Shown here: positions 9,384-55,668 of the stretch, piece after piece
How positions within the stretch are numbered: the stretch's first letter is position 1
How the letters are laid out: every line of letters begins with the position of its first letter
Source of the DNA: Candidatus Gastranaerophilales bacterium Zag_111
Lineage (GTDB): Bacteria; Cyanobacteriota; Vampirovibrionia; Gastranaerophilales; Gastranaerophilaceae
Assembly: GCA_001899395.1 (NCBI GenBank)
Contig: MOYD01000024.1
Location: 436-64,435, forward strand
Length of the DNA: 64,000 bases
Direction: 5' to 3'
Notes under the pieces: generated by a model
What the model saw: only the letters and a program-made list of their open reading frames with translations
What the model was told of the DNA's origin: nothing
Databases searched by the model: none
Translations under genes and position numbers: made by a program

Positions 9384-9457
9384 TGGAAGGTCGTCTAAAG
9401 GTAGGACACGGGACTTTGACTCCTGCAATAATAGTTCGAGTCTATTTCTTCCAGCCA
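9384..9457 (+). tRNA. tRNA-Gln (anticodon UUG), CCA encoded
   Basis: Hand-folded cloverleaf: acceptor TGGAAGG/TCTTCCA, D GTCT/GGAC, anticodon stem CGGGA/TCCTG, loop CTTTGAC, T AATAG-TTCGAGT-CTATT. U1-A72 and G73 are typical of tRNA-Gln. Confidence 0.85.
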
Positions 9458-9485
9458 TTATACCCAATGAATAGGAGGATATACT

Positions 9486-9878
9486 ATGAAAATTTCAAGA
9501 CAAGAGATTGAAGATGTTGTTAAGCAGTATAAGCTCTCGGGTCAAAGTAAAATGCCAAGTGATGAAATTGTCTATAAGGCGGACCATGGATTTTACAAAT
9601 ATGAACTCTATAATCTTGATGGCGAGATTGCGGCATTTATCTTACCTCGACTCTATGAATATAGAAAGTCTTGTTCTCAATGGATTCCTTCTGATATTCT
9701 TGAGTCTTGTGATGGTAATGAAGCTGAAGCATATAAGAAATGGAAGAAAATTCTTAAGAAAATGATTGTAGCTTTTTATTATGTTGCAAAAGGCTCAACG
9801 TGTAGTGAAGAAGAGGACAAAAAAGTAGAAAAAGGACTTAGATTATTCTCAAAATATCTTACGTCCCTTTGGACTTAA
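9486..9878 (+). CDS. Hypothetical protein
   Basis: RBS AGGAGG. Intact 130-aa ORF. Confidence 0.6.
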   Translation: MKISRQEIEDVVKQYKLSGQSKMPSDEIVYKADHGFYKYELYNLDGEIAAFILPRLYEYRKSCSQWIPSDILESCDGNEAEAYKKWKKILKKMIVAFYYVAKGSTCSEEEDKKVEKGLRLFSKYLTSLWT

Positions 9879-9879
9879 A

Positions 9880-10138
9880 GATATAAATGCGTGTAGAGAT
9901 AGCACGAAGTAATCAATTAGATTGCGGCTTAATTGACGAATCGAAAGACGTAGCAGTTAAGTTTTCAGTATGAAGGTCTTAGCTCTGGGAAATAGTTGAG
10001 GTCGAAAGACGGGAGTAAAGATTGGACTGAAACGGGGTTGCCTGACGACCTGCGTAGCTCAACCGCTAGACAATAGAAACAGGCTTGGCTGCTTTGCGGC
10101 GACAGAGTTCTCCTATCTCACAAAGGGAGTTCTAATAT
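9880..10138 (+). other. ORF-less structured spacer (possible small RNA) upstream of tRNA-Asn
   Basis: No ORF. Repeated TCGAAAGACG hairpin motifs. GGTTG..CAACC stem. Confidence 0.25.
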
Positions 10139-10210
10139 TCTTCTTTAGCTCAGCGGCAGAGCACCCATCTGTTAAACGGGAGGTCGTTGGTTCGAGTCCA
10201 ACAAGAAGAA
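10139..10210 (+). tRNA. tRNA-Asn (anticodon GUU)
   Basis: Acceptor TCTTCTT/AAGAAGA, D GCTC/GAGC, anticodon loop CTGTTAA (one A-C mismatch in the stem), T GTTGG-TTCGAGT-CCAAC. Confidence 0.8.
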
Positions 10211-10216
10211 TTATAT

Positions 10217-10537
10217 GGGGTCGTATTAGGTTCGACAGCATAATGGAAAATATTAAGCAAGCAAACCTTTTAACAAGAAATTGCACTAGTAATTTTGCAA
10301 TGGCTGCCTAAGTGCAGCCCGTCAATTATAAGTTCCTGTTGCGGCTTATAAGTTGGCGTGGATTAGCAACAGAAAAACTCAGGACAATTGTAATGCGTCT
10401 TGTTTCACCTCCTAAATTACATGGCGGCTCAATAGTTTTGTTCATTTTGTAGAGCTACTATATTAAAATGAAATAAGCTTGTAGAAAGATATTGGAAGTT
10501 ATGTTGGACAGGAGTGCAATTCTCCTCGACTCCACCA
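10217..10537 (+). ncRNA. ssrA: tmRNA (SsrA)
   Basis: 5' GGGGTCGTATTAGGTTCGAC pairs with 3' CGACTCCACCA and includes the G3-U70 Ala identity pair. T-arm AGGAG-TGCAATT-CTCCT. Internal tag frame ..ANLLTRNCTSNFAMAA-TAA. Confidence 0.85.
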
Positions 10538-10564
10538 AGACAGAGGCAGTTAATTGCCTCATAT

Positions 10565-10638
10565 TCTCCGTAAGCTTTAAGGTGAAGCACCGACCTTTTA
10601 AGTCGGAGAAGAGAGATCGTTACTCTCACGGAGAACCA
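10565..10638 (+). tRNA. tRNA-Lys (anticodon UUU), CCA encoded
   Basis: Acceptor TCTCCGT/ACGGAGA, D GCTT/AAGC, anticodon stem CCGAC/GTCGG, loop CTTTTAA. The T-loop ATCGTTA is atypical. Confidence 0.7.
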
Positions 10639-10721: not shown

Positions 10722-12032
10722 ATGGATTTCCGAAAACTAAAATCAATTGGCAATTGGGCAAATCTAAATAGTATAGATTACCAAACTTATATGGAATGTA
10801 TAAAGTTTAGGTTTCTAGAAATTAAAGAAATTTTCCCTGAAATTGATTGGGAGCTATTCAAAACCCATACTCTATCTGAAAGTTTTATTCCAGACAGAGC
10901 AAAGTATAAATATGCAGATAAATTTCTAACTGGTTTTGCTTTTGCAAAAGAAAAGTCTGCCGCCGAAGTTGAATTAATTAATCAAATTTTGTCTATTAGT
11001 ACTCTTGACTTTAGAGAATATGAGATTATAGGTTGGTTACATCAAAATTATTATAATCTTGATAAGAAAGACGTTGATAAGAAACGCCGAGAGGGTAAAG
11101 CTACAAATGAACAAAGTGAGCTAGAAAAGACTTCTCAGATTTTTACTCCTAAGTGGATTGTAGAATATTTAGTTCAGAATAGTTTAACTTATTATTCTAG
11201 AGAACTTATGGAAGATTATAGCCAAATACTAGATTATTGTGATTATTTTACTCCTAATGCTGTTGGGATTAAAGATAGTAATTCAATTAAAGTTCTTGAA
11301 CCTTGTTGCGGCTGTGGAATGTTTATAATTCAAATATTAGATTTCTTACAGCGTTTTATTGTAAAAGATATTCGCCGCATTTGGAATGAGAATATGATTG
11401 TCTATGCGGATTTAGATCCAAAAGTAATTGATGTTACAGATTTCATTTGCTATGTTTACAATCTTACAAGAAATTTTGATTATCAACCTCATGGATTCCT
11501 ATATCAAAATGAACTAGGATTTATGGATTGTGATTGTGAGATTTGTAAAGACAAGTATGACGTAATATTAACAAATCCTCCTTATGTTGGAAATAAGAAT
11601 CTTCCTAAAGAAACAAGAGAATATTTGAAAAAGAATCTGCCGCTTGGTAAAGCAGATTTATGCACGGCGGCCATGGAACAATCTATGAAGATTTTGAAAC
11701 CTAATGGAATGATCTCGATGGTAACATCCGATAGCTGGATGTTCTTGAGTAGTTTTGAAAAGCTAAGAGAAAAAATTATTGATGGTTATGATATTATTAC
11801 AATGGCTCATTTAGGTGCTGGTGCTTTTCAAAATGTTCAAGGTAGTGTTGTTAGAGCTACAGCTTTTGTTCTTCAAGAAGGCAGAATTGAGAACTTAAAT
11901 GGACATTATTTTAGACTAGTTGATTCAAAAAATAAGGAAAAAGATTTCTTTGTATGTCATTTCGATGATGTCAAATTTTTGACTTCTGAAGAGTTTTGTG
12001 ATATAATAAATATAGAAAAAGAAAAGAGGTGA
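10722..12032 (+). CDS. N6-adenine DNA methyltransferase (gamma-class, Eco57I/PglX-like)
   Basis: Motif I EPCCGCGMF, motif IV LTNPPYVG, upstream FTPKWIVEYL. Confidence 0.75.
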   Translation: MDFRKLKSIGNWANLNSIDYQTYMECIKFRFLEIKEIFPEIDWELFKTHTLSESFIPDRAKYKYADKFLTGFAFAKEKSAAEVELINQILSISTLDFREYEIIGWLHQNYYNLDKKDVDKKRREGKATNEQSELEKTSQIFTPKWIVEYLVQNSLTYYSRELMEDYSQILDYCDYFTPNAVGIKDSNSIKVLEPCCGCGMFIIQILDFLQRFIVKDIRRIWNENMIVYADLDPKVIDVTDFICYVYNLTRNFDYQPHGFLYQNELGFMDCDCEICKDKYDVILTNPPYVGNKNLPKETREYLKKNLPLGKADLCTAAMEQSMKILKPNGMISMVTSDSWMFLSSFEKLREKIIDGYDIITMAHLGAGAFQNVQGSVVRATAFVLQEGRIENLNGHYFRLVDSKNKEKDFFVCHFDDVKFLTSEEFCDIINIEKEKR

Positions 12033-13145
12033 GAAAGATATTAAGAGGATTTAAAACAAATATTTATCCAACAAAAGAGCAAGAAGATATTCTTTTTGCA
12101 TATTGTGAATACGCTCATAAAATGAGAAATTTTTTAGTAGAGAAATTCAAAGATAATCTACCTAAAGTGGGACCTTATGGAATTATTGGGTACAATGAGA
12201 AAAAATTATTAGAAGAATTTAGTGAGAGAGAAATTCCTAGAATTCCCTTACCGCATCTTTTATTAAAAGGAGTAATAAGAGGATATGCAACTTCCGTTAG
12301 AAAAACATATAAGAAGCTTGCACGCCCACCCAAATTTCACAAATATATTGCAAACAAACAGTCTTTTTATATTCCAAAAGATTATTCTATCATATCTAAT
12401 ACAATAGTTTTACCTCTCAAGAGAAACACTTGATCCAAAAATATCAAGAATTAAAGCTGAAAGAGTTTATCTTGAAAAATTTAGTATTACTCAAGTAAAA
12501 GAACCTAGATATACTTATCAAAATGGGAAATGGTATATTTCAGGTTGCTATGAGGATGGTATTACTCCACAAAAGAAAGAAACAACTTTTGTAGGTCTTG
12601 ATTGGGGGATTAAAAATTTTATGACAACCTCATAGGGGGAGTTGATAAATTATCCAGATAGTGTAATTAGAGAATATGAACGGATTAAAAAATTAATATC
12701 TATTAGAGATAAAAAAGATAAAGGTTCAAATAATTACCTAAAAATTGATAATAAAATAAATGAAGCTTGGGAAAGATTTGATAACTTAAAAAGAGATTTT
12801 ATTGAGCAGATTACAAATAAATTATGTAAAAATTATAATATTGCAGTTGAAGACTTAACTGATGCAAAAATATTAAAATCAACTAAAAATAGGAGACGTT
12901 TAAGACTTATAGCACCAAGATATCTTTTTATTGAAAAAGCAAAATGGAAATGTCAAAAATATGGTACGCAATTTGTTGAAGTTAATCCAGCATATACTTC
13001 TAGAACTTGCAGTAAATGTGGAAAAGTTAAAGAGAATCTATCATTACAAGATAGAATTTTTAAATGTGAATGTGGATTTGAATTAGACCGAGATATAAAT
13101 GCGGCAATTAATATTGCTGCAAGGGGAGCCTGTGAAGCCCTTTAA
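12029..13145 (+). CDS. tnpB: TnpB-like RNA-guided nuclease (IS200/IS605 OrfB family), frameshifted with one in-frame TAG, no TnpA
   Basis: GFKTNIYPTKEQ..PPKFHK. RuvC-I VGLDWGIKN, RuvC-II IAVEDL, zinc ribbon CSKCG..CECG, RuvC-III DRDINAAINIA. +1 frame change near 12425. TAG at 12633. Confidence 0.8.
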
Positions 13146-15718: not shown

Positions 15719-16165
15719 ATGGCATACTCAAGGCAATTGAAATTTGAAACTGAATTATTAAAAAAGTATGAGGATGGAGAAAGACTTTATGCAGCTCAAG
15801 TCTATGGGAAACTCTATCATGGATTCAATTGTATTCTTATGAGATTCGACAAAGAACCTTATCTGAATAATGATCTATATGAAGACACAGCAATAACAAT
15901 GCAAGGTTTAGAGGAATATAGTGAATTTGAAGGTACTCCAGTTGAAGAAGAAGTAACTTATATGACTAAGAAAATTAAAGTTCTAAACTTTGGCGGGCAG
16001 CGTTATCTCCAAAAGAAATTCGTTGATTACTTTAAGTTTGGAAGAAATTATCAAGTTAAGTTTTATGTTCCAAAAAATAACGCACCAATTCTATTATTTG
16101 ATACGAATAGTGCAATTCCAGATGGAATTATTGCTCAGTTTAAGCGGAGGGATCAGGATGAATAA
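15719..16165 (+). CDS. Hypothetical protein, paralog of 25264..25686
   Basis: Shared ILMRFD, KKFVDYF, P.L.FD and GII motifs. Confidence 0.6.
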   Translation: MAYSRQLKFETELLKKYEDGERLYAAQVYGKLYHGFNCILMRFDKEPYLNNDLYEDTAITMQGLEEYSEFEGTPVEEEVTYMTKKIKVLNFGGQRYLQKKFVDYFKFGRNYQVKFYVPKNNAPILLFDTNSAIPDGIIAQFKRRDQDE

Positions 16166-21040: not shown

Positions 21041-21385
21041 ATGAATACATATAGTTTGAGTGGAGATATGAGTATCACCAAGATCAAGGCTGCTGTTAAA
21101 GAAGAGATTATGGAACGTATTATGGCGGCTCTTGCGGAAGAATTCACAGAAGACTCTGTAGGAATGGTTCGAGGTTCTAAAAAGAATGAGATTGGAGCAG
21201 TAGTTACAACTGTTGAGGTTGATGGCGAAGATGTTCCGATGTGTGTGACAATCAATGTTTCGGCAAAGGAATTCACACCTCATGTAAGTCCAAAGGGCAA
21301 GCATTATGAGCCTTATGACTTCGCCGCAAGACGACAGGAATATGAGAATCATCAGAGAGAAAAGCAGTTGAATGCTAAGGCATAG
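21041..21385 (+). CDS. GEENV-family paralog, terminates at TAG
   Basis: RBS AAAGGAG. Family motifs present. Stop is TAG 21383-21385. Read-through would add 11 aa up to TAA 21419. Confidence 0.6.
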   Translation: MNTYSLSGDMSITKIKAAVKEEIMERIMAALAEEFTEDSVGMVRGSKKNEIGAVVTTVEVDGEDVPMCVTINVSAKEFTPHVSPKGKHYEPYDFAARRQEYENHQREKQLNAKA

Positions 21386-21436: not shown

Positions 21437-21511
21437 GCCGAATTAGTTCAATGGAAAGAACACGAACCTTCTAAGTTTGAAATCTTAGTTCGATTCTAAG
21501 ATTCGGTGCCA
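21437..21511 (+). tRNA. tRNA-Arg (anticodon UCU), CCA encoded
   Basis: Acceptor GCCGAAT/ATTCGGT, D GTTC/GAAC, anticodon stem CGAAC/GTTTG, loop CTTCTAA, T CTTAG-TTCGATT-CTAAG. Confidence 0.8.
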
Positions 21512-21562
21512 CCAATATCAATTAAATACTTACTTTCTTACTGAGGGAGTTAATCCCTCTAT

Positions 21563-21638
<76 letters not shown>

Positions 21639-21687
21639 GCATCGGTCTGTGATAAGACTGTTAATTGAGGGAGTTAATCCCTCAACT

Positions 21688-21761
21688 ACTCGTATAGCTC
21701 AATGGGAGAACAATCAGCTTATAACTGATAGACTCTGGATCGAAACCAGATACGAGTACCA
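21688..21761 (+). tRNA. tRNA-Ile (anticodon UAU), CCA encoded
   Basis: Acceptor ACTCGTA/TACGAGT, anticodon stem ATCAG/CTGAT, loop CTTATAA, T TCTGG-ATCGAAA-CCAGA. One D-stem mismatch. Confidence 0.7.
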
Positions 21762-23509: not shown

Positions 23510-23770
23510 ATGAGAGTTAGAGATGAGTTAATAGCTTTAATCAATTCAAAAGAATTTGAAGATGTTGTTCCTTATGGAAATAGTGTTTGTAGAATTAAAA
23601 TTGAAAACATAATGGCGGCGAATCAAATTACTGAATGGTACATGGATATACGCTTAGTTGACTGGAACGAGCTTTGGGACGAATTTGTAGTTTCAATTGT
23701 CTGGGTTGAAGATAAAACACTAGAACACATATTGAAATATCCAATTGAAATAAAAAATAAAGAAGATTAA
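23510..23770 (+). CDS. Hypothetical protein
   Basis: ATG after AAAGGAG. Confidence 0.55.
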   Translation: MRVRDELIALINSKEFEDVVPYGNSVCRIKIENIMAANQITEWYMDIRLVDWNELWDEFVVSIVWVEDKTLEHILKYPIEIKNKED

Positions 23771-23774
23771 AAAC

Positions 23775-23803
23775 TTTACTTTTATATAAAATTATGATAT
23801 AAT
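23775..23803 (+). promoter_or_regulatory. Early promoter cassette
   Basis: TTTACT, 17 nt, TGATATAAT. Confidence 0.7.
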
Positions 23804-23848
23804 ATATATAGAAGGTAAGGAAAGAACCCATTAGTGAAAGGAATTAAA

Positions 23849-25264
23849 ATGACTGTAAGAGAAGCTTTTCCGAATGAAACAATTTTCAAGTCAGCAAGCA
23901 CAAACAATCTAATGAATTTTTTGGATTTGCCGAACGATGTTAAAGTACATCTTGCACAGAAGTTTACAGATAGAAATGGTAAGTTAAACGCCTATGAATT
24001 AAGTCAATATGTTAAGCAAATGAGATTAAAGCCTGATGAGTGGAATATTAAATTATTGGAAGCCCGCCATACTAAGAAAGGTGTTATTAAGCTTCTGACA
24101 AAAGTAAAGATTCAGTTTGATTACGTAGATGATTTGATTTGTTTTCAATTGCCTGAGTATGGTTTTCCTACTAAGAAAGCACAAGAAGCTCAAGTTGATT
24201 GGAGCTTAATTTCTGATAATAAAGAGCATTTGTTAAATCCTGATGGTGCTTGGGGCGAAGTAACTCTTTGCTATGATTGCGGCATGATTCAGATGACAAA
24301 CTTTGAACCACTTTGTCCTTATACGTATAATGTTGATAAGTATAGAGAGGGAAGAAAGAAGTTTACAACTGAGGAATGGATTGACGTTCTGATTGATGGA
24401 TTGAATTTTAACTCGGCGGCCATGACAGAAGAACAGAAGCTTACTACACTACAGAGATTCTTGGGATTGGTTGAGAAAAGATTTAATACAGTTGAAATTA
24501 GTATTAAGGGCAGCGGCAAGTCTTATTGCTATTCTCAAATTTCTCCTTATAGTTGGTTGACATCTGGTACAGTATCTCGTGCAACTGCATTCTATAATAA
24601 TACAACTAAAAAGGTTGGTTACTTTGGTTCTGCTGATAATGTTGTTTGGGATGAGGTTCAGACATTAAAATTCCAGAATAGTGATGAGATGAATGGTGTA
24701 CTGAAGCCTTATCTTGAAAGTGGCGAGATTAGAATTGGTTCTTATTGCGGTGTTGCAGATGCTGGTTTGACATTGGTTGGTAATGCACCGAACTCGATAC
24801 TTGATCCAACAAAGTACAATATGTTTAAGACACTTAACAAGACCTTCCAAGAGTCAGCGATGCTGGACAGATTCCATCTATTAATTGATGGTGTCAAGAT
24901 AGGGCGTTTTACAGAAGATCGTAAGATGGAAGGCTGGGCATTGAGTTCAGAGTACTTGGCAGAAATCTTCCATTGTCTGAGATCAGAGTTTTACTACCAG
25001 CAGATTGTTGAGGACCTAATCGATGTTGAAGCTGGCGGCGACACAAGAAACCTGAATGCAATTAAAAAGACTGCAACAGCTCTGTTAAAACTTTTATTCC
25101 CTCATGCTACTTGCGCCGCCGACATTGATAAAGAGGAATTTGAATACTATTGTTTAAAGCCTGCAATCCATGGTAGACAGTTGGTATTGAATCAGTTGAG
25201 ATTCTTGGACAAGGAATATGATAATGTTAAAATGCCTGTTGTTAAAGTTAAGGAGGAAGCTTAA
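23849..25264 (+). CDS. BrxL-like AAA+ ATPase (BREX BrxL N-terminal and ATPase modules, no Lon-protease domain)
   Basis: FTTEEWIDVLIDGL, Walker A IKGSGKSY, Walker B VVWDEVQ, LDRFH, ATALLKLLFP are collinear with BrxL/TIGR02688 proteins as recalled from memory. Confidence 0.6.
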   Translation: MTVREAFPNETIFKSASTNNLMNFLDLPNDVKVHLAQKFTDRNGKLNAYELSQYVKQMRLKPDEWNIKLLEARHTKKGVIKLLTKVKIQFDYVDDLICFQLPEYGFPTKKAQEAQVDWSLISDNKEHLLNPDGAWGEVTLCYDCGMIQMTNFEPLCPYTYNVDKYREGRKKFTTEEWIDVLIDGLNFNSAAMTEEQKLTTLQRFLGLVEKRFNTVEISIKGSGKSYCYSQISPYSWLTSGTVSRATAFYNNTTKKVGYFGSADNVVWDEVQTLKFQNSDEMNGVLKPYLESGEIRIGSYCGVADAGLTLVGNAPNSILDPTKYNMFKTLNKTFQESAMLDRFHLLIDGVKIGRFTEDRKMEGWALSSEYLAEIFHCLRSEFYYQQIVEDLIDVEAGGDTRNLNAIKKTATALLKLLFPHATCAADIDKEEFEYYCLKPAIHGRQLVLNQLRFLDKEYDNVKMPVVKVKEEA

Positions 25265-25686
25265 TGAAAGATATTAAATTCCAAAGAGATTTAATTACTT
25301 ACTTGTCAAAAGGCGAACACTTAATTCAATCTGAAACTAAGGGGGCTATCTTTAGAGGAACAGACCAAATCTTAATGCGACTTGACAATTGCTATATCGA
25401 CTTAAGATATTTTGATGAGATTTATAGCTTCGCCGCAAAAAAGTATAATGAAGTAGTTAGTACCTATGAGAATGAACCTGTTAAAATTGGGCGGCGCAAG
25501 GTTACTATTGTTACTTTGAGAACAAGAGATAAAGAAGTTGGTGTTGATAAAAAGTTATTAGATTATTTTGAAGAACCTACTATGTTAGTTAAGAATGATA
25601 GTGAACCTGTGTTTGTTTTTGAGAATGGGGAACTGTGTGGTTTAATAATGCCGATTAAGCTTAAGAGCGCGTGGAGAGAAAAGTAA
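25264..25686 (+). CDS. Hypothetical protein, paralog of 15719..16165
   Basis: RBS AAGGAGG. Shared ILMRLD and KKLLDYF motifs. Confidence 0.6.
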   Translation: MKDIKFQRDLITYLSKGEHLIQSETKGAIFRGTDQILMRLDNCYIDLRYFDEIYSFAAKKYNEVVSTYENEPVKIGRRKVTIVTLRTRDKEVGVDKKLLDYFEEPTMLVKNDSEPVFVFENGELCGLIMPIKLKSAWREK

Positions 25687-25728
25687 ACATATATAAAATT
25701 TGGCGGCGAAGCAACGGAGGTAAGCAAT

Positions 25729-25953
25729 ATGAGAGAAATGTTGATTGGGGCAATTATTGAAGAAGCAATTAGAATTAACTGTATCTATGAGAACGTAAGT
25801 GTTGTATTAACTCTTACAAGAGAGAAAGAACTAATAATTGAACATCAAGTAGATGGAGAAAATGAGGAGTATTGGAAACAGTGGGTTATTAGTAGTAAGA
25901 ATAATGAGAAGTATTTGAATAGTGTTTTGGAAGAGCTAAAGGCGATTAGATAA
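25729..25953 (+). CDS. Hypothetical protein
   Basis: RBS ACGGAGG lies within a GGCGGCGAAGCAA motif copy. Confidence 0.5.
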   Translation: MREMLIGAIIEEAIRINCIYENVSVVLTLTREKELIIEHQVDGENEEYWKQWVISSKNNEKYLNSVLEELKAIR

Positions 25954-25960
25954 GAAAAAA

Positions 25961-25993
25961 AAGAGATTAGGCATTGTGTCTAATCTCTTTTCT
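25961..25993 (+). terminator. Terminator hairpin
   Basis: AAGAGATTAG-9nt-CTAATCTCTT followed by TTCT. Confidence 0.6.
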
Positions 25994-26008
25994 AAAGGAG
26001 GTATCCAA

Positions 26009-26395
26009 ATGGAATTCCAAGTAAATAATTTCAAAACCCTAAACGAGCAAAAGCAAGACCTAACCAAAAAGCTCTCTTCAATTCCTACAACCAGCGGCAT
26101 CTATCGTCTATACTTCCCCTGCGGCAAATCCTATATAGGTTCTGCGGCAAACCTACGTCAGAGAATTAGAACTCACCTAAACACAATCTATTTAGTACTA
26201 CGCTATGAACCAGACCTAGACTTTTATATTGCCAGTCATAAAGTTCCTAATTGGTGTGGTGAAGCCTTTAGAGATTTAACTAATTATGAACTGGGGGAGG
26301 TAGTAATTAGGTATAGGGAGATAGAGGATAAAGTAGAGAGAGATTTGGCGGCAAAAGATTTAATTAGGGAAGGGAAAAATTTATATAATAGGTGA
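26009..26395 (+). CDS. GIY-YIG nuclease-domain protein (second copy)
   Basis: SGIYRLYFPCGKSYIGSAANLRQRIRTH. ATG after AAGGAGG. Confidence 0.65.
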   Translation: MEFQVNNFKTLNEQKQDLTKKLSSIPTTSGIYRLYFPCGKSYIGSAANLRQRIRTHLNTIYLVLRYEPDLDFYIASHKVPNWCGEAFRDLTNYELGEVVIRYREIEDKVERDLAAKDLIREGKNLYNR

Positions 26396-26439
26396 GGAGA
26401 TTTTTTTGTTAGAAAAAATTTTTGAGTTTAACACGTTCT

Positions 26440-27020
26440 AAATGAATATGGGGAGTTATCTTTAATAAGTATAGAGAGGAACCCTAAGAAAGTGGTAAAA
26501 AGGGAGATGAGATAAGAGAATTGCGGTAAAGGAAGTAGAAAGAGGGAGTAGGAAATAGAATAGGGAAGTAATACTGCTGGGCTTGACGTTTGGCAGTATT
26601 ATTTTATTATATAGTAGAGAATTGATAGAGAGGATGGCGGCGAAAGAAGTAGGAGAGAAAAAGTAGAGAGAGAGGAGTAGGGAGAGAATTGACAAAAGGA
26701 AGAAAAATTTATTAATATATAAGAGGAGAATTTTGAGTAAATGTAAAGTAGAGTAGAAAATAGTTGAGTAGGGAGAGAAGAAAGAAGAGTAGAAACTTGA
26801 CTTTTAGAAGAAATTATAGTATAATATAAATAAAGAAGAGAGGAAGTAGGAGAGAGAGGAGGTAGGGAGAGGAGAGGAAGAAGAACAGAAGAATGAGGTA
26901 GAGAATAGAGAGAGGAGGACTTTGAGTAGAGAAGTGCTGAGAGGAGGAATAAGTACTGGATAAGAAGTAGGAAGAAGGAAGTAGAGGAATGAGAAAGGCA
27001 GAAGTAGTAGGAGAACTAGC
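26440..27020 (+). repeat. Purine-rich (A/G) tract studded with promoters and AGTAG/GGAG motifs
   Basis: Top strand is almost pure A/G over ~580 bp with many GAGTAGG, GGAGG and AGGAG words. No credible ORF on either strand. Confidence 0.8.
26797..26825 (+). promoter_or_regulatory. Promoter cassette inside the purine tract
   Basis: TTGACT, 17 nt, TAGTATAAT. Confidence 0.65.
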
Positions 27021-27022
27021 CC

Positions 27023-27050
27023 TTGACAATAGTTGGATTTATAGTATAAT
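27023..27050 (+). promoter_or_regulatory. Promoter cassette
   Basis: TTGACA, 16 nt, TAGTATAAT. Followed by an ORF-less ~130-nt unit. Confidence 0.65.
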
Positions 27051-27193
27051 ATATATAAAGGGGAGTGGAACCTAATGTAAAAATTTTTCGCCGTAATAGT
27101 TTTGCTACAGCTCGTTATTGTAGTAGCTGTAGCCTAGTTTTGTAATTGCTGAGTAACGCACTGTAGCGCTGTCAAGGAGTTGGCAGTGGAAAC

Positions 27194-27221
27194 TTGACTT
27201 TAGTAAAAATTATATTATAAT
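27194..27221 (+). promoter_or_regulatory. Promoter cassette
   Basis: TTGACT, 16 nt, TATAAT. Followed by an ORF-less unit homologous to the one after 27023. Confidence 0.65.
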
Positions 27222-27557
27222 ATATAAAGGGGAAAATAAAGCCTAATGTAAAAATTTTCGCCGCAATACTTCTACCACAGCTCCTTGCCGCAATAGCATA
27301 GCCTAATGTTATAACTTTTTAATGAGCTGAGCTGAGTAACGATCTGCAAAACCTGTCAAAAATTTGACAAAACGAAATAATTTTAGTACAAATTAAGAAT
27401 TTTTCGCCGCAATTTAATTCCAAAACGAATATAAAACGAGTAGAAACGATAAGAAAGTTGGAATTTTTTTGAATCCTAATAAAGAATCTGGAAAAATTTT
27501 GCCGTGAGATGTTCAATTTTTTAACTTTTCTTGTCAAATTTTTTCATTTCCTATAAT

Positions 27558-27793
27558 TTCCAGCTCCTTTTGTTAAAATTTTCCAGCTCCTATTACCAGC
27601 TCCAGCTCCAATAGGGCGTACTCTATTTCCAGCTCCTCTTTTTCCTACACTGCACCGCCGCAAAAATTTGACAGATACTTTTCTTGACAACGGGGTATAC
27701 ACTTCCAGCTCTAATAGGGGGTAAGCTCCAGCTCCTGTCAAATTTTTAACCAAACTTTTCCAGCTCCAATAGGGGTCAAACTTTTCCAGCTCC
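27558..27793. repeat. Iteron cluster, TTCCAGCTCC (about 9 copies)
   Basis: TTTCCAGCTCC or CCAGCTCC recurs every 12-75 bp. Confidence 0.85.
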
Positions 27794-27944
27794 TTCCAAT
27801 TGTAAGAGGGGTAGATCAAAAATTTCCCAGTCAAACTTTTACCACACTATCCCACATACTCTATCAAAACTTTCCTGTTCCTTTGCCAATATTTGCTTCG
27901 TCAATCTGTACAAAAACTCAGTTAAATTGTTGACACTATTCTAC

Positions 27945-27973
27945 TTGACAATTCTAAAAATTTATGTTATAAT
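27945..27973 (+). promoter_or_regulatory. Promoter cassette
   Basis: TTGACA, 17 nt, TGTTATAAT. Confidence 0.7.
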
Positions 27974-28008
27974 ATATATAGAGAGGAGGAGATAGAAAGG
28001 AATTCCTA

Positions 28009-28086
28009 ATGACTATGGCGGCGAAGCAATCAAACAATGGAAAGGAGTACTATGTCAAATGTTTGTTCTCTTGCCAGACATTGTAA
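28009..28086 (+). CDS. Hypothetical mini-protein (25 aa, MTMAAKQ...)
   Basis: Short ORF between a promoter and a terminator. Contains a GGCGGCGAAGCAA copy. Confidence 0.25.
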   Translation: MTMAAKQSNNGKEYYVKCLFSCQTL

Positions 28087-28111
28087 ACTGTTCATAAAAA
28101 GTTTACAATTT
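28081..28111 (+). terminator. Hairpin terminator (TTGTAAAC/GTTTACAA stem)
   Basis: TTGTAAAC-12nt-GTTTACAA followed by TTT. Confidence 0.5.
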
Positions 28112-28127: not shown

Positions 28128-28156
28128 TTGACAAAAATAAAAAATTATGTTATAAT
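28128..28156 (+). promoter_or_regulatory. Promoter cassette
   Basis: TTGACA, 17 nt, TGTTATAAT. Confidence 0.7.
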
Positions 28157-28226
28157 ATATATAGAAGATGAGGGGAAGAGCAGTAGCGGATGCCCCAGTA
28201 AAGAACGCTACAGAATGGAGTATATT

Positions 28227-28616
28227 ATGAAAAACTATGATGCATCTGCTACAATGTCCGCAACCAAGAACGCAGTACGTGCAGATATTACCACTGCAAT
28301 GTTAGAATTCTTCCGCTCCTACTATGGTGAGGAGAACGTGTCAATTGTTGGTAATAATGAAATTGCTGTTGCCGCTGGTGAGAAAACTCTCTCAGATGGT
28401 ACTATTGGTGAAATCTGTGCAGTGGTAAAACCTGTAATTAAGGAATACGAATCTCGTACAACTGTAAAGGGTGAAGCTGTAGAACCTTACGAGCGCCTTA
28501 TTGAAGCAGATTCCTACCAAGAAGAGGTAGAGCAAAAGGCGGCAGAAAAGGCAGAAAAAGCTGCCGCAAAAGCAGCAAAGATTGCTAAGGCAAAAGCAGA
28601 CAAAACCAAAGAATAG
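28227..28616 (+). CDS. GEENV-family paralog with an Ala/Lys-rich tail, terminates at TAG
   Basis: YYGEENVSIVGNNEIAV..VKP..EPYERLIEAD..AEKAEKAAAKAAKIAKAKA. Stop is TAG 28614. Read-through would add 9 aa. Confidence 0.65.
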   Translation: MKNYDASATMSATKNAVRADITTAMLEFFRSYYGEENVSIVGNNEIAVAAGEKTLSDGTIGEICAVVKPVIKEYESRTTVKGEAVEPYERLIEADSYQEEVEQKAAEKAEKAAAKAAKIAKAKADKTKE

Positions 28617-29896: not shown

Positions 29897-30280
29897 TTAT
29901 TCACTTTTTGCTTTGGTAATTTTTGCCGCCTTTGCTCTTGCCTTTGCTTCTTTTTCCGCTTGCTTGCTTGCTTGCTCTTCTGCATAGATATCCGCTTCTG
30001 TCAGTCGTTCAAATGGTTCGTAGATTTTTCCCTTTGGTGTTACTCGTGTATCAAAGTCCTTTGCTACTGGTGCAGATGTAAAGCATACTTCTCCGCTTGT
30101 ACCGTCTGCAAGAGTTCTAAACCCTACACATACCGCAATTTCATTTGATCCCGTGATGCTTACATTTTCCTCCCCGTATTCCATGCAAGCGGCTTTGTAA
30201 AGCAATTCAAAGCCTATTTTTCTAACTTCGTTCTTTACTGCTGTAGCGGTCTTGAGTTCATCAAAATTTCTTGTATTCAT
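29897..30280 (-). CDS. GEENV-family paralog with an Ala/Lys-rich tail
   Basis: About 80% identical to 32383..32766. YGEENVSITGSNEIAV..APVAKDFD..PKGKIYEPFERLTEAD. Confidence 0.7.
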   Translation of the reverse strand: MNTRNFDELKTATAVKNEVRKIGFELLYKAACMEYGEENVSITGSNEIAVCVGFRTLADGTSGEVCFTSAPVAKDFDTRVTPKGKIYEPFERLTEADIYAEEQASKQAEKEAKARAKAAKITKAKSE

Positions 30281-32382: not shown

Positions 32383-32766
32383 TTATTCACTTTTTGCCTT
32401 GGCAATTTTTGCTTCTTTTGCTTTTGCTTTTGACTCCTTTTCTGCTTGTTTTGTCGCTTGATCTTCGGCGAAAATGTCTGCTTCGGTCAGTCGTTCAAAT
32501 GGTTCAAAAATTTTGCCTTTTGGTGTTACACGTCTATCAAAATTTTTTGCAACTGGTGCAGATGTAAAGCAAACTTCACCTTCTGTACCGTCTGAAAGTG
32601 TACGATAACCAATGCAAACAGCGACTTCATTAGAACCCGTGATTGAAACGTTTTCTTCGCCGTATTCCATGCAAGCGGCTTTATACAAGAGATTGAAGCC
32701 GATTTTTCTGACTTCGTTTTTTACTGCTGTAGCGGTCTTGAACTCGTCAAAATTTTTCATAGTCAT
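32383..32766 (-). CDS. GEENV-family paralog with an Ala/Lys-rich tail
   Basis: See 29897..30280. Confidence 0.7.
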   Translation of the reverse strand: MTMKNFDEFKTATAVKNEVRKIGFNLLYKAACMEYGEENVSITGSNEVAVCIGYRTLSDGTEGEVCFTSAPVAKNFDRRVTPKGKIFEPFERLTEADIFAEDQATKQAEKESKAKAKEAKIAKAKSE

Positions 32767-51516: not shown

Positions 51517-54500
51517 ATGGCACAAAACCTTTTTGAAAAATACGGCATTAAGGAAGTTGCTGATGTGTGGCTTTCTCGTATTGAACGGAAAGAAGAAACT
51601 TATGAATCTCAAAGAAAGATTCCTGTATCTTCTATTCTAAAAAGCGCATTGACCTTAGAGACTGTTTATCCTCTTGATACAGATGGTAAGGGTGCAGATG
51701 AGGGCTATGAAGCTTATGTGTTTAAGGATGCCGATGTGCTGACTCATTATAATTATGATTGTGATGATGAAGTTACGGTTATTGGTAAGGGTTATGTTCT
51801 TGATGTTCCAGGCGAGGAACCAGAAGCTCAAACTGATGCTGATACTGGTGAAGTAATTAGTGATTATCCTACTAAAGCTGAAAGCTATTATTCAGACTCA
51901 GATGCTTTTACAGAAGCTTATACCAATAGTATTTTGACAATTAATTCTGCTTATGATAAAAATTCATTAAGAAATATTCTTTCTTCTGTTAAAGCTTACT
52001 TAGCTGGTACAGATTATGAAATCAGTGAAGTTACAATTTCAGATGTTACGATTTCTAATAGTTATAATACTTCTAGTACTTTAGATGGTAATGCTAGTGT
52101 AGATGGATCAACTTTAATTACTTATGTATCATATCTAAAGTCCGCATATAGTGATGCTACAACTTTAGACACTCAGGGGAATGAAGTTTCTTATCCCCCA
52201 GAAATCTATTTTACGGTTGCAAAATCTGATGCTTACAACTGGGTAGCAGTAAGAGCTGCTATTGCAGAGTATCTATTATCTATTGACGCAAGCGAAGGTT
52301 ATGGTATCGATATTGATGAAACGGACGTTTATGGAATTTATACTGTTCCTAAATCTACAACTGAAGAATCTACTTCTACAGCCCTGACAACTGTTGATGT
52401 TTCAGCTATTAATATTGATTTTACCTATACAGACGGCGATGGTAATTCAATTAGTGTGAATTTGTCATATAGTGATGAAGAATATCTATCGGTTGCTTTG
52501 CCTACAAGTGTTGTAGAATATTTGACTGGTGCATCAGCTACTGAACCTGATGCAGAAGATGTTGTTGCGGCACTAGAAATTCTTTATAATACAGATGGTG
52601 TTACAGTAACTCCTGAGGATGTGACAGATTCAGAAAATTAGACACTTTCAGAAGATTACGAAGATGGCGATGAACTATCGATTGATTTTTCATATATAGA
52701 AGGCTTTAATTATACTATCGTTCCTATGGATGATGATAGCTATGAAAGTGGTACTTTTATCCTTACTATCGTTCTATATCCGATTTATAGCTTTAATTAT
52801 GAGATTGTTTTTGCGTCTGCCGAAGAAGCTCTTACGGGTATTTTTGATGTAACTACTGAATCACCTGATAACGCAACTGGAAATACAGGTCATTACGTAA
52901 CCGATCCAGATTATGCAGATCAAGGTACTCATGAATTCACCTATGCAGAACAAGTTTGCTTAATCTTTGCAAAAGCACAGAATCTAATTACTAAACGTGG
53001 TACTCGTTATCAGTTTACCGATGCAAACACCACCTTTAGTGACATTGAATTCAGTGATGAATTTGCAGCGGCACCTAACTCTTCAGAAAGAGTTGTGGTT
53101 GCTGGTTTAGCAGATAAAATTTCTGAAAATCTATATGATTTGGATGAAATTAATGAATACATTAAAACTCAACTAACTGATACAATTGATGCGAAAGCTT
53201 ATGATATTGTATATACCGATTATGCAGAGCTTGTTGTTGAGGATGAGATGGGTTACTATTTACCACAGCAACTTGGTACTTACAATAGAACAACTAAGAA
53301 AATGGAATTCTTTGGTGATGGCGGCTATACTGCATATGCAACTGCACTAAAGGGTGTAGATATTGGTATTAGTACGGCAGTTAGTACTTGGGGTAATGAT
53401 AAGCATTATAGTATTAATGACGCAATTGACGCTTTGAAGCAAGAAAAACGAGTTATCGATGGCGAAGTTGATCTTGGTACTGTTGGATTTGAAAGAATCT
53501 TTGGCGGCTACAAGGTACTTGGTGCTGATGATGGCGAGAAAGAAAAAGCTGGTCTACCATTCAATGATGGACAGGGCGTTTATGGATACGAAGTTAATGG
53601 CGAAGCAGTAACAAGTGTAATTGATGATTCTGCTGTATATAGCGGTTATCCTCTTGATTCTGTACTAGAAGCAATTGCATCTATGGAATCTCAGATTGAG
53701 GGGGCGCACTTACGTGTTAATAATGACTTCTTAATTCAGTCCAATAGAGCAATTTACGTTGATGCAGCATCTGCTTCTACATCTGCGCGCGCTCATATTT
53801 ACTTGCTAAGAAATATCAATGCTAAGAAACTTACATCTGATTCTGCTGGTATTTTCGAATTCTATGATAAGAAGGGCAATAAGCTTCATTATCAAGATAG
53901 AATCTTTGCTGGCACAGAATATCTAGCACTTGTTACCATTGGTCAGTCTGGTCTAATCTTTGTTGTTGAAAGACACGGAACAAAGAATATTGATAAGATC
54001 GCTTGGATGGTAAGTGACGGTGGCTTCTTAACAAATAAACAAGCTGAGAAGATTGTTGCTAATGGTCTAATCCATACAGTAGATGTTACAGTATGTGACG
54101 AATCCTTTGATGCAACTTGCACAGTAGGTTCTATCAAGATTCGTAAGACCAAGAAGAGCGTTCTTCACTATGTTCCAGTTCTTTATTTAGATACTCTTAA
54201 GGTTAGTACAATTGAGCAAGCCGCTGAAACAGTAGATGCTACTGGTGGTCGTGGCAATGCTAAACTAATTACTTGGGACTTCAGTAAAGAAATCACACTA
54301 TCTATTGAAGATGCATTATTTACACCAGCATCTATGGCTGCTATTTGGGGCGGCGAACATGGTGATGTTAAGAATGGCGTTAAGGATACACATCACATTG
54401 ATAGAATGGAAAAGATCACTGCTAAGAGAAGCTTCATTGTACCAGCAGGTAATAGCCTAGGTACTCCTACTGAAGGCGATATTACTGCTCAGGCTGTTTA

Positions 54501-55565
54501 CTATGATCCTCAGACAATGGAACCATTCCAAGATGGTACTCCAATTGCAGAGGGCGAAGTGATTTATAAGTTTACACGTTCTGTAGCTTATGATGATAAT
54601 AGTATTGGTAATACAATTGAAATTTCTGCGGAGAAATTCCCTGGTACTTATCGTGTAGTAGGCGAGACTTATGTACGTGATAAGAAGACTGGTGAAGATC
54701 AGAGATTCCAGTTCGTTATTCCAGAGGCTAAACATTTGGTCGCTTAAGTGGAAACATTTAAGGCAATAATTAATTAATTGCTGGGAAAACTTAGGTCAAA
54801 TAAACCACAACGCAGTCAGGAATGGCATTCGTGAAGGTTTGAAAATTATTTGATAGTAGAGTTAATCAGCAGCGCGGCGACAGCAATCGCAACGTTCAAC
54901 GACTATTCCGAGAGGAAGTAGAGGTTAAGTAATCTCGAAATATTAAATACCTGAAAAGGTAAAGATATAGTCTTATCATTTGCGGTGACGCAAAGTTCTA
55001 GACAAAGTAATACGAATACTTTGAAAAAATAAATGAAAATGTCAGCAGAAGATACATCCATTACGCTTGAAGCGGATGGAGATCCAGTCGTAAACAGTAA
55101 AATCAAATGCGACTGTAAAATTGCTTAATTGCTGGGAACTCCTTAGAGCTAATAAAACTACAACATAATCTGAAAAGATAAGTGTGAATGTTAAAAATTT
55201 ATTAGATTGGACAATCAGCAGCGTAGTACCTTAAAGGGTAAACGTTCAACGACTATTCCGTAAGGAAGTAGAAGTTAAATAACTTCGATGTGACAATTAC
55301 TGAAAAGTAAAGATATAGTCTGAACTTCTATTGAAAGATAGAGATATAACAAAATTGGTTTGACTTTACAATGGATGTCCTTCGTCCAGACGATGGCGTA
55401 ATGATGAAGTTCATTCAGTTTGATACAGTAGAAAACGAAGAAGAGAACGATGGTTCTACAATGGTTAAGGATACTGAAAACCTCAACCTACTTGACGATG
55501 CAGAAATGTATAAGATTAGTAGTGATACAGAGGAAGACCTAGCTATTGGTGCTACTGAATATTAA
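51517..55565 (+). CDS. Structural paralog 1 (1158 aa), exons 51517..54729, 55036..55091, 55358..55565, 1 in-frame TAG
   Basis: N-terminal MAQNLFEKYGIKEVADV plus VLYLDTLKVST..LITWDFSKEITLSIEDAL. C-terminal GETYVRDKKTGEDQRFQF..ITLEADGDP..GVMMKF is restored only after removing two introns. Confidence 0.7.
54730..55035 (+). ncRNA. Group I intron (paralog-1 intron 1, ORF-less)
   Basis: Core TTGCTGGGAAAA..AATCAGCAGCG..GTTCAACGACTATTCCG..GGAAGTAG..GATATAGTC. Starts AAACA like intron 2. Boundaries come from frame and paralog alignment. P1 is weak, so allow a few nt of error. Confidence 0.65.
55092..55357 (+). ncRNA. Group I intron (paralog-1 intron 2, ORF-less)
   Basis: P1 CAGTCGT/GCGACTG with U-G at the splice site. 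P10 GTTTGA/TCAAAT. Same core as intron 1. Terminal G at 55357. Frame restored. Confidence 0.8.
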
Positions 55566-55668
55566 TAGATATAAAATAAGGTAAAATGGTAAGTTGCAGC
55601 CATTGGCGATCTAATGGTCCAATGGCTGCTTTTACTTATCATAATTAAATACGGAGGTGAATGGAATA

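Follow-up and report, generated by a model that had tools for sequence, protein, structure and literature searches.

We describe a solitary gene for BrxL, a protein of the bacteriophage exclusion (BREX) defense systems, found on a stretch of 64,000 nucleotides of phage DNA (contig MOYD01000024.1, GenBank assembly GCA_001899395.1). This whole 64-kb stretch is called the window below, and positions given without another reference are those of the window. The gene, brxL, codes for a protein of 471 amino acids (aa), and its features are collected in Table 1. A first reading, made from the sequence alone, had taken the open reading frame (ORF) for a phage-encoded BrxL homolog, collinear with the N-terminal and AAA+ modules of BrxL and lacking the Lon-like domain. 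Pfam, TIGR02688, PADLOC and Foldseek agree on the collinear modules, and we consider the ORF to be, almost certainly, a genuine orphan BrxL in the style of BREX type 4.

The phage nature of the DNA, likewise proposed in that reading, is clear from its content. The window holds portal and virion-protein PHROGs, a GH25 lysin and six tRNAs, and it has relatives of 140-186 kb in IMG/VR. Its portal is distantly related to the portals of large Enterococcus and Bacillus phages, and its largest ORF, of 673 aa, codes for a virion protein.

Family membership and predicted fold

Profile hidden Markov models (HMMs) place the protein firmly in the BrxL family. PF13337 (BrxL_ATPase) matches residues 148-461 with an E value of 2.9e-91 and 306 bits (profile positions 2-311 of 313), and residues 6-142 are covered by PF20442 (BrxL_N, profile positions 2-132 of 132) with an E value of 7.4e-12 and 45.8 bits, the cutoff being 28.2. 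The match to TIGR02688 runs from end to end and scores 336.6 bits, a narrow margin over the curated equivalog cutoff of 329.3, which is expected because the phage clade described below is divergent. The PADLOC model for short BrxL, PDLC02505, aligns over positions 8-479 of 482 (1.4e-138). The sequence-only reading had proposed an HMM search as its own check, to be judged by whether any BrxL profile was hit, and these strong matches, including TIGR02688, are the outcome. The four motifs that it quoted are also present at the residues given: FTTEEWIDVL (172-181), GSGKS (221-225), WDEV (267-270) and LDRFH (339-343).

The BrxL entries 8EMC and 8EMH were the sole solved structures reached by sequence, with phmmer against the PDB finding 8EMC at 1.1e-36. 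A monomer model built with AlphaFold2 on 57 relatives is of high confidence, with a predicted local distance difference test score (pLDDT) of 91.2 and a predicted template modeling score (pTM) of 0.90. Compared by Foldseek with the chains of 8EMC and 8EMH, it gave E values of about 1e-34 to 1e-36 for 23 of the 24 chains (the weakest being 1.5e-29) and query template modeling scores (TMq) of 0.78-0.87, the best being 0.84-0.87, over 462-498 columns, that is, over the whole length. The next matches after BrxL were MCM2-7 and archaeal MCM, at E values of about 1e-10, and there was no close match among catalogued viral protein structures. In the model, helices extend to about residue 73 and strands occupy residues 79-154; we name the parts of the N-terminal region according to the published description (PMC12839542).

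The BrxL of BREX type 1 (TIGR02653), solved from Acinetobacter as 8EMC/8EMH, thus has an N-terminal and ATPase fold like that of the phage protein (TMq 0.84-0.87) at about 24% identity, and its residues E280, L134 and R265 all have counterparts there. What the phage protein does not have is the 200-residue Lon-like C-terminal domain of the type 1 protein, through which two rings are joined by their tails and which apparently holds the ATPase in check (PMC10164562).

The short form is the architecture of BREX type 4

The phage protein stops 10 residues after the ATPase domain. The long-BrxL model, TIGR02653, gives 186.6 bits against a cutoff of 628.25 and aligns only over positions 68-455 of 675, so the Lon-like domain is indeed absent. 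This is not a truncation specific to the phage: the short form is the ancestral and normal architecture of BREX type 4 BrxL, as follows from TIGR02688, PDLC02505, an operon of Methanosphaera and the literature. BREX type 4 BrxL, the subject of both models, has the same length and domain order as the phage protein, with BrxL_N followed by the MCM-like AAA+ domain and no C-terminal extension, and the two are 34-41% identical. The best plasmid match is the 472-aa BrxL of plasmid pNP174 of Methanosphaera sp. ISO3-F5, the last gene of a type 4 BREX operon that consists of a BrxP with 3'-phosphoadenosine 5'-phosphosulfate (PAPS) reductase, BrxC, BREX-4 PglZ and BrxL. The same short architecture is described for BREX type 4 in PMC12839542.

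Cellular relatives were retrieved by a scan of one genome per species (n=74, identity at most 41%). The brxL gene lies directly 3' of PglZ in 64 of these 74, and BrxP, BrxC and PglZ occur together in 53. Many of the retrieved BREX-4 loci come from gut and rumen Clostridia.

A further arrangement was seen in rumen Ruminococcus and Oscillospiraceae metagenome-assembled genomes (MAGs), where a short BrxL belongs to a different conserved operon (L044, 1657-13058; also L024, L026, L031, L040 and L053). In this operon an Hsp70-like protein is followed by a coiled-coil protein, three unknown proteins, a classical AAA ATPase, BrxL and finally a protein whose C-terminal domain is of the DUF421/YetF type; PglZ, BrxC and BrxP are absent. 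This operon may be an undescribed BrxL-containing system.

Distribution and origin of the phage clade

The close relatives of the phage BrxL are 52-68% identical to it and all about 470 aa long. Some are encoded on contigs that reach 193 kb, others on IMG/VR viral contigs of 140-186 kb and on contigs of 105-184 kb that were binned with MAGs of Ruminococcus, Oscillospiraceae and other Clostridia. The clade is confined to a lineage of uncultivated phages of about 140-190 kb from gut and rumen samples, in which the orphan gene was seen on no fewer than 27 independent viral contigs. A link to hosts with BREX-4 is possible, as the phage contigs were binned into the same groups of Clostridia as the BREX-4 loci. 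When 1.84 billion representatives were clustered at 50%, the whole clade formed one cluster, whose nearest neighbor, at 43% identity, is itself an orphan in a phage-like setting.

Cultured and deposited phages gave no near-identical DNA by megablast, and the protein matches in the deposited-phage collection were either BREX operons mislabeled as phage or long type 1 BrxL. The GenBank record MT835511 (L003, 8365-21485), named 'Bacteriophage sp.' and marked 'unverified', holds an apparently complete BREX type 4 operon in the order 975-aa protein, BrxP, BrxC, PglZ and BrxL. It is either a mobile element carrying BREX-4 or a bacterial record. Two other viral-type contigs carry divergent orphan short BrxLs. 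On L196 (5303-11431) a protein with 43% identity is encoded at a distance of 4 kb from a small PAPS reductase that is split, and on L186 (8810-14744) one with 29% identity directly follows a kinase-phosphatase-RNA ligase fusion and precedes ThyX and ClpP.

Neighbor-joining (NJ) trees with 100 bootstraps, rooted on type 1 BrxL, recovered the phage clade as monophyletic in all 100 replicates and as sister to the bacterial BREX-4 crown in 83. One archaeal BREX-4 BrxL and a variant from cyanobacteria branch before it, which leaves BREX-4-type lineages on both sides. A first NJ tree had hinted that the phage clade was sister to all BREX-4 proteins, and bootstrapping did not uphold this. Since the phage clade falls inside the radiation of short BrxLs, the trees, in which NJ long-branch effects are possible, suggest that an ancestral phage captured brxL from a BREX-4-type defense operon, and they do not favor the relation to the ancestor of BrxL that the first reading had considered.

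Three contigs that share a close portal allow the history of the gene to be compared with that of the phage. Against the window, their portals are 71-73% identical, their BrxLs 65% and their RNA ligases 34%. Since BrxL is thus nearly as similar as the portal in the same contigs, it has probably travelled for a long time with this phage lineage. Our search of the literature found no paper that mentions a phage-encoded BrxL, and a solitary, conserved yet dispensable phage-borne BrxL appears to be undescribed.

The phage gene stands alone

We built our own HMMs for the BREX-4 partners BrxP, BrxC and PglZ, the PglZ model being derived from 67 BREX-4 loci. None of them matched an ORF of at least 45 aa in the window, and the 27 loci of the phage clade and another 79 viral loci were equally free of matches. 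In all 27 phage-clade loci brxL is solitary, amid small unannotated genes that differ between sublineages. Unlike the BrxL of BREX type 4, the phage protein is therefore never encoded beside PglZ, BrxC or BrxP, and its gene forms a solitary early phage cassette. The phage protein belongs to the BrxL family but, with these three partners missing from the window and from the phage-clade loci, forms no part of a BREX system.

A conserved partner gene of another kind was ruled out, as the flanking families vary between sublineages. Genes of 271 aa that lie 3' of brxL in two relatives (L123 and L186) were considered as a shared partner and are unrelated, the one in L186 being ThyX. Pfam and PHROGs returned almost nothing informative for the neighbors of brxL, most of which are without a database match. 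Neither a primase, a polymerase nor any other replication gene was found among the window ORFs scanned with Pfam and PHROGs or among the few neighbor families of related loci; the window and the 10-kb flanks of the relatives cover only part of the phage genome, and the replication module lies outside them.

Catalytic residues and selection

The residues on which the activity of BrxL should depend are retained (Table 1). K224 of Walker A is invariant, and S225 is invariant in our set A1 and conserved in at least 90% of the 57-sequence phage clade. The glycine that precedes the lysine varies between G, A and S within the clade, and A/S variation at this position is also a feature of MCM. The Walker B glutamate corresponds to E280 of Acinetobacter BrxL, whose change to glutamine (E280Q) abolishes both ATPase activity and restriction. 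R341 and R400 are invariant; we take the DRF motif that contains R341 to provide the arginine finger, by analogy with the SRFD motif of MCM. Also conserved are L129, which corresponds to the ring-interface residue L134, and K254, which corresponds to the pore residue R265 of Acinetobacter BrxL.

The phage and BREX-4 clades are equally deep, with mean identities of 0.62 and 0.64. They share the same residue, each with a conservation of at least 90%, at 98 alignment positions; clade-specific positions are few. The phage proteins nevertheless form a separate clade with 100% bootstrap support, and compared with BREX-4 they are more variable at the N-terminal tip (residues ~10-35) and more conserved in the region resembling an oligonucleotide/oligosaccharide-binding (OB) fold. 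Within the phage clade, the pairwise ratio of nonsynonymous to synonymous substitution rates (dN/dS) is 0.006-0.13, values that are the lowest or close to the lowest among the genes common to the same contig pairs.

Given the conserved catalytic, interface and pore residues and the low dN/dS, the phage BrxL is apparently active and would be expected to turn over ATP. The conservation of the interface and pore residues further predicts that it assembles with ATP as a ring around double-stranded DNA, as the solved BrxL does.

An accessory cassette with its own promoter

The promoter proposed for brxL in the first reading is supported by the sequence. A promoter scan scored it 10/12 with a TG extension; its -10 hexamer is 23798-23803, and the stretch from TTTACT to the end of TGATATAAT covers 23775-23803. 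It sits within a 20-nt motif, TGnTATAATATATATAGAAG (23795-23814), of which the window has 22 copies where 0.1 would be expected. Nearly all of them lie on the plus strand, between 5477 and 37981, and each precedes one to three small genes. From this extended -10 promoter brxL would probably be transcribed early by the host RNA polymerase. The start layout recurs, as GAAAGGA followed by ATG, in the brxL of the related locus L123, where the cassette is flanked by the same type of promoter. A motif related to TGnTATAATATATATAGAAG borders cassettes in distant relatives as well, as a recombination site for cassette loss.

A natural variant lacks the gene. The locus L141 (IMG/VR ...159127) is collinear with L123 (...149637), with 95-97% nucleotide identity on both sides, and lacks exactly 3.4 kb, namely brxL and the two following genes of L123. 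Where L141 is joined, the two promoter copies that bound this segment in L123 are fused into one hybrid copy. The pair was found in a scan anchored on the RNA ligase, in which the other brxL-negative loci are too distant for nucleotide comparison; a comparison anchored on the portal gave three brxL-negative contigs, and in two of the three the expected position of brxL falls beyond the contig end. Fragmentary contigs of related strains (sequencing runs X1 and X2), informative for the cassette breakpoints only, match the window from 23767/23768 to 25991 and change abruptly to unrelated sequence on both sides.

As a phage 95-97% identical cleanly lacks the gene, brxL is very probably accessory and is unlikely to be an essential replicative helicase, although a helper role that enhances fitness is possible. 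The suggestion of a replication or DNA-loading ATPase in the first reading is accordingly disfavored in so far as it implies an essential protein; this phage without the gene and the lack of replication genes nearby both speak against it.

Table 1. Coordinates of brxL, its coding landmarks, promoter motif and module in the window
Feature	Position	Strand	Details
brxL module common to related strains	23768..25991	+	Promoter, brxL, 140-aa ORF, 74-aa ORF
brxL cassette promoter	23775..23814	+	-35 TTTACT 23775-23780, 17-nt spacer, extended -10 TGATATAAT
Example sites of TGnTATAATATATATAGAAG	13538, 16476, 17838, 20252, 23459, 23795, 28148		
Alternative in-frame GTG start of brxL	23834	+	Would give 476 aa (5 extra residues)
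Shine-Dalgarno-like AAAGGAA	23837..23843	+	5 nt 5' of ATG 23849; read from sequence
brxL coding sequence	23849..25264	+	471 aa + stop; ATG 23849, TAA 25262-25264
BrxL N-terminal region, residues 6-142	23864..24274	+	Helix-turn-helix-like helical part, then OB-fold-like beta region; PF20442
MCM-like AAA+ ATPase domain and lid, residues 148-461	24290..25231	+	PF13337, Foldseek
Walker A GSGKS (K224, S225)	24509..24523	+	Aligned to GTGKS (K234) of 8EMC
Walker B D268-E269	24650..24655	+	Both invariant; E269 aligned to E280 of Acinetobacter BrxL
Putative sensor-1 asparagine N312 (LVGN)	24782..24784	+	Invariant in phage and BREX-4 clades; role from AAA+ convention
D340-R341-F342 with putative arginine finger	24866..24874	+	Invariant in A1 and phage clade; aligned to FDRFH of 8EMC
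140-aa ORF	25264..25686	+	ATG overlaps brxL stop (TAATG); strong AAGGAGG upstream

Neighboring genes and the wider window

The 140-aa ORF that overlaps the stop codon of brxL has no Pfam or PHROG match. Its description as a member of a paralog family holds only weakly, since a single paralog was found in the window (15719-16165, 25% identity, E value 6e-6). A homolog occurs in the related locus L009 only, and the ORF is not a conserved neighbor in other lineages. The third gene 3' of brxL is a small GIY-YIG-like ORF on the plus strand (25976-26395; PF01541, 23.8 bits against a cutoff of 22.6), which may be an element of the homing-endonuclease type. Its start lies just inside position 25991, the divergence boundary of the related strains. 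Beyond it, 26400-28100 is poor in ORFs and contains several perfect or near-perfect TTGACA-17-TATAAT promoters, and 26680-27347 has no coverage from related strains.

The early-promoter region holds two orphan DNA methyltransferases (N6 and C5), a T4 Rnl1-like RNA ligase, tRNAs and a gene like that of transfer-messenger RNA (tmRNA), and the phage also encodes a dCMP deaminase. The methyltransferases, the RNA ligase and the tRNAs may point to an anti-defense setting, yet the direct neighbors of brxL have no function assigned by Pfam or PHROGs. The RNA ligase is encoded, together with tRNA-Lys(UUU), Gln, Asn, Arg, Met and Ile(UAU), at 5965-7011, 9384-10638 and 21437-21761, and sets of this kind can counter the damage done by anticodon nucleases of the host. 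The RNA ligase gene of several relatives lies 3-7 kb 5' of brxL. The tmRNA-like gene (10217-10537, plus strand), located between tRNA-Asn and tRNA-Lys, matches the full-length Rfam model RF00023 with 94.3 bits and was not called by ARAGORN. Just 3' of the N6-adenine methyltransferase gene (10722-12032) is a TnpB/Cas12f-like C-terminal fragment (12642-13145, plus strand; PF07282, 1.5e-24; PF01385, 1.7e-8).

A family of five proteins of ~115-160 aa without a database match is spread over the window, at 7488-7895, 21041-21385 and 28128-28616 on the plus strand and at 29897-30280 and 32383-32766 on the minus strand. Of 28 related loci, 22 have members no more than 10 kb away from brxL. Further downstream, two group I introns on the plus strand (54720-54995 and 55052-55343; Rfam RF00028, 69 and 66 bits) lie between the ORFs 52726-54747 and 55657-57189, both of the virion structural family phrog_2729. 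The two ORFs look like a structural gene split by introns, and they are part of a 10-member paralog family at 52.7-63.9 kb.

Possible functions of the phage BrxL

The mechanism that we rank first, with a probability of roughly one in three, is that the phage BrxL is an active but uncoupled protein that competes with the BrxL of host BREX-4 systems. In hosts with BREX type 4, restriction would require the loading of host BrxL onto unmodified DNA. The phage protein, made early and in excess, would displace host BrxL on DNA or on its loader, or would enter mixed rings, and restriction would fail since the phage protein does not couple to the effector proteins of the host. ATP hydrolysis would have been kept so that the rings do not lock on the phage's own DNA, as an E280Q ring would. 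For such a decoy, the invariance of every catalytic residue calls for a competitor that is active but uncoupled, and not for a dead dominant-negative protein.

We rank competition first because of the apparent origin of the gene from BREX-4 systems, its place in a strain-variable early cassette near orphan methyltransferases, RNA ligase and tRNAs, the abundance of BREX-4 in the retrieved loci from gut and rumen Clostridia, and the precedent of viral cas homologs that act as anti-CRISPRs. Orphan viral cas homologs have been described as anti-CRISPRs (bioRxiv 10.1101/2023.06.24.545427), and like them the phage brxL is a solitary homolog of a defense subunit in a viral accessory region, with a phylogeny consistent with capture. 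Unlike those inhibitors, it keeps its full catalytic equipment and is a decoy candidate only. Another precedent is McrBS, which titrates McrBC rings (discussed in PMC9009780). Poisoning of Salmonella BREX by an N-terminal fragment of BrxL is not a further precedent, since the effects reported in the paper are those of a C-terminal fragment, and we make no use of it. The literature that we searched contained no BREX inhibitor that is a homolog of a BREX protein, the inhibitors that appeared there being Ocr, T3 SAMase and OrbA.

Several points weigh against competition with host BREX-4. A classical dominant-negative protein needs no intact ATPase, yet the catalytic residues are all invariant. 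BREX-4 is uncommon overall, being reported from 457 taxa (PMC12839542), and brxL is kept about as faithfully as the portal (65% against 71-73%); such retention, despite the rarity of BREX-4, fits a more general function better. The altered conservation of the N-terminal tip and the OB-like region suggests constraints unlike those inside a BREX complex. Orphan short BrxLs occur in two more viral lineages (L186 and L196), in other contexts. With only 37-41% identity to the BrxLs of cellular BREX-4 systems, the phage clade forms an ancient, deeply rooted branch and is no recent copy of a host gene, so that compatibility with host partners is not to be assumed. Finally, the placement of the hosts comes from metagenome binning only, which is weak evidence. 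The wider proposal, that this gut phage lineage disarms the phosphorothioate-based BREX type 4 by means of a captured, still-active BrxL motor, is a tentative one.

Only slightly less probable is that the phage BrxL is an accessory DNA-metabolism motor working on the phage's own DNA, in origin melting, fork progression, recombination or the clearance of bound proteins. It would bring a gain in fitness without being indispensable, and we liken it to the non-essential helicases of large phages. To our knowledge, helicase activity is not known for any BrxL. The MCM replicative helicases share with the phage protein an MCM-type AAA+ core and an OB-like N-terminal region; the fold and motifs are MCM-like, and the ATPase residues and the pore-loop lysine are invariant. 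The tighter conservation of the OB/DNA-binding region than in BREX-4 proteins, the strongly purifying selection, the long vertical retention with a conservation about that of the portal and the lack of need for a partner gene all suit such a motor, and the distance of 37-41% from cellular BrxLs, like the other points raised against the competitor, supports it equally. Compared with MCM, however, the phage BrxL is only 10-14% identical, with a TM-score of about 0.4, has neither a primase fusion nor a primase neighbor and is dispensable in the natural variant. The clean absence of the gene from a phage that is 95-97% identical also tells against a motor of this kind, as does its position amid small early cassettes with methyltransferases and RNA-repair genes and with no adjoining polymerase or primase. 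There is a precedent for the use of MCM-family helicases by mobile elements in the MCM-primase BcMCM, co-opted by a Bacillus cereus prophage (PMC2715239), but the solved BrxL encircles duplex DNA, and in the parts of the structural paper that were searched the phrase 'helicase activity' does not occur.

We think it improbable that the protein is a weapon of exclusion or host shutoff, which would load onto foreign duplex DNA, be it the host chromosome, superinfecting phages or plasmids, and block its replication, with the phage's own DNA spared through modifications or timing. BrxL is the restriction-specific component of BREX and is thought to block replication (PMC10164562, PMC9009780), but in the BREX systems that have been studied it fails without BrxC, PglZ and PglX. 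The enzyme is intact, is probably expressed early and is encoded by an accessory gene, as exclusion proteins usually are. The N6 and C5 DNA methyltransferases and the dCMP deaminase of the phage could mark its own DNA; however, no discrimination module travels with brxL, and a methyltransferase lies adjacent to it in this window only and not in other lineages. The contigs, moreover, resemble free phage genomes of 182-186 kb and not prophages, from which carried defenses have mostly been reported.

The last alternative, a mis-assembled or mis-binned piece of a bacterial BREX-4 system or the decaying leftover of a BREX system carried by a phage, can be dismissed: two GenBank records named 'Bacteriophage sp.' were matched (MT835511 and MT835963), of which the inspected one, MT835511, holds an apparent whole BREX-4 operon, but here brxL is surrounded by portal, virion proteins, lysin and a phage-wide class of promoter, the orphan gene recurs on at least 27 independent viral contigs, dN/dS values of 0.006-0.13 exclude decay, and fragments of BREX partners are absent from the window ORFs.

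Implications

For annotation, the immediate consequence is that a match of a viral protein to the short BrxL models is not to be taken as a BREX system. Such proteins are also called 'ATP-dependent Lon protease' in some sources.

The contribution of BrxL to BREX restriction is poorly understood, and the protein has been studied only inside six-gene systems. A long-lived solo BrxL in phages implies that the motor can do something useful with neither PglZ, BrxC nor a modification enzyme beside it. Thanks to the natural knock-out, the unvarying catalytic residues and a model of high confidence, the phage protein offers a testable route into the function of BrxL. If it is an inhibitor, the principle of the stolen defense part turned to counter-defense would reach from CRISPR to BREX, and the phage BrxL would be the first anti-BREX protein homologous to a BREX subunit. 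If it is a motor for DNA metabolism or exclusion, it would show the action that the BrxL ring itself has on DNA.

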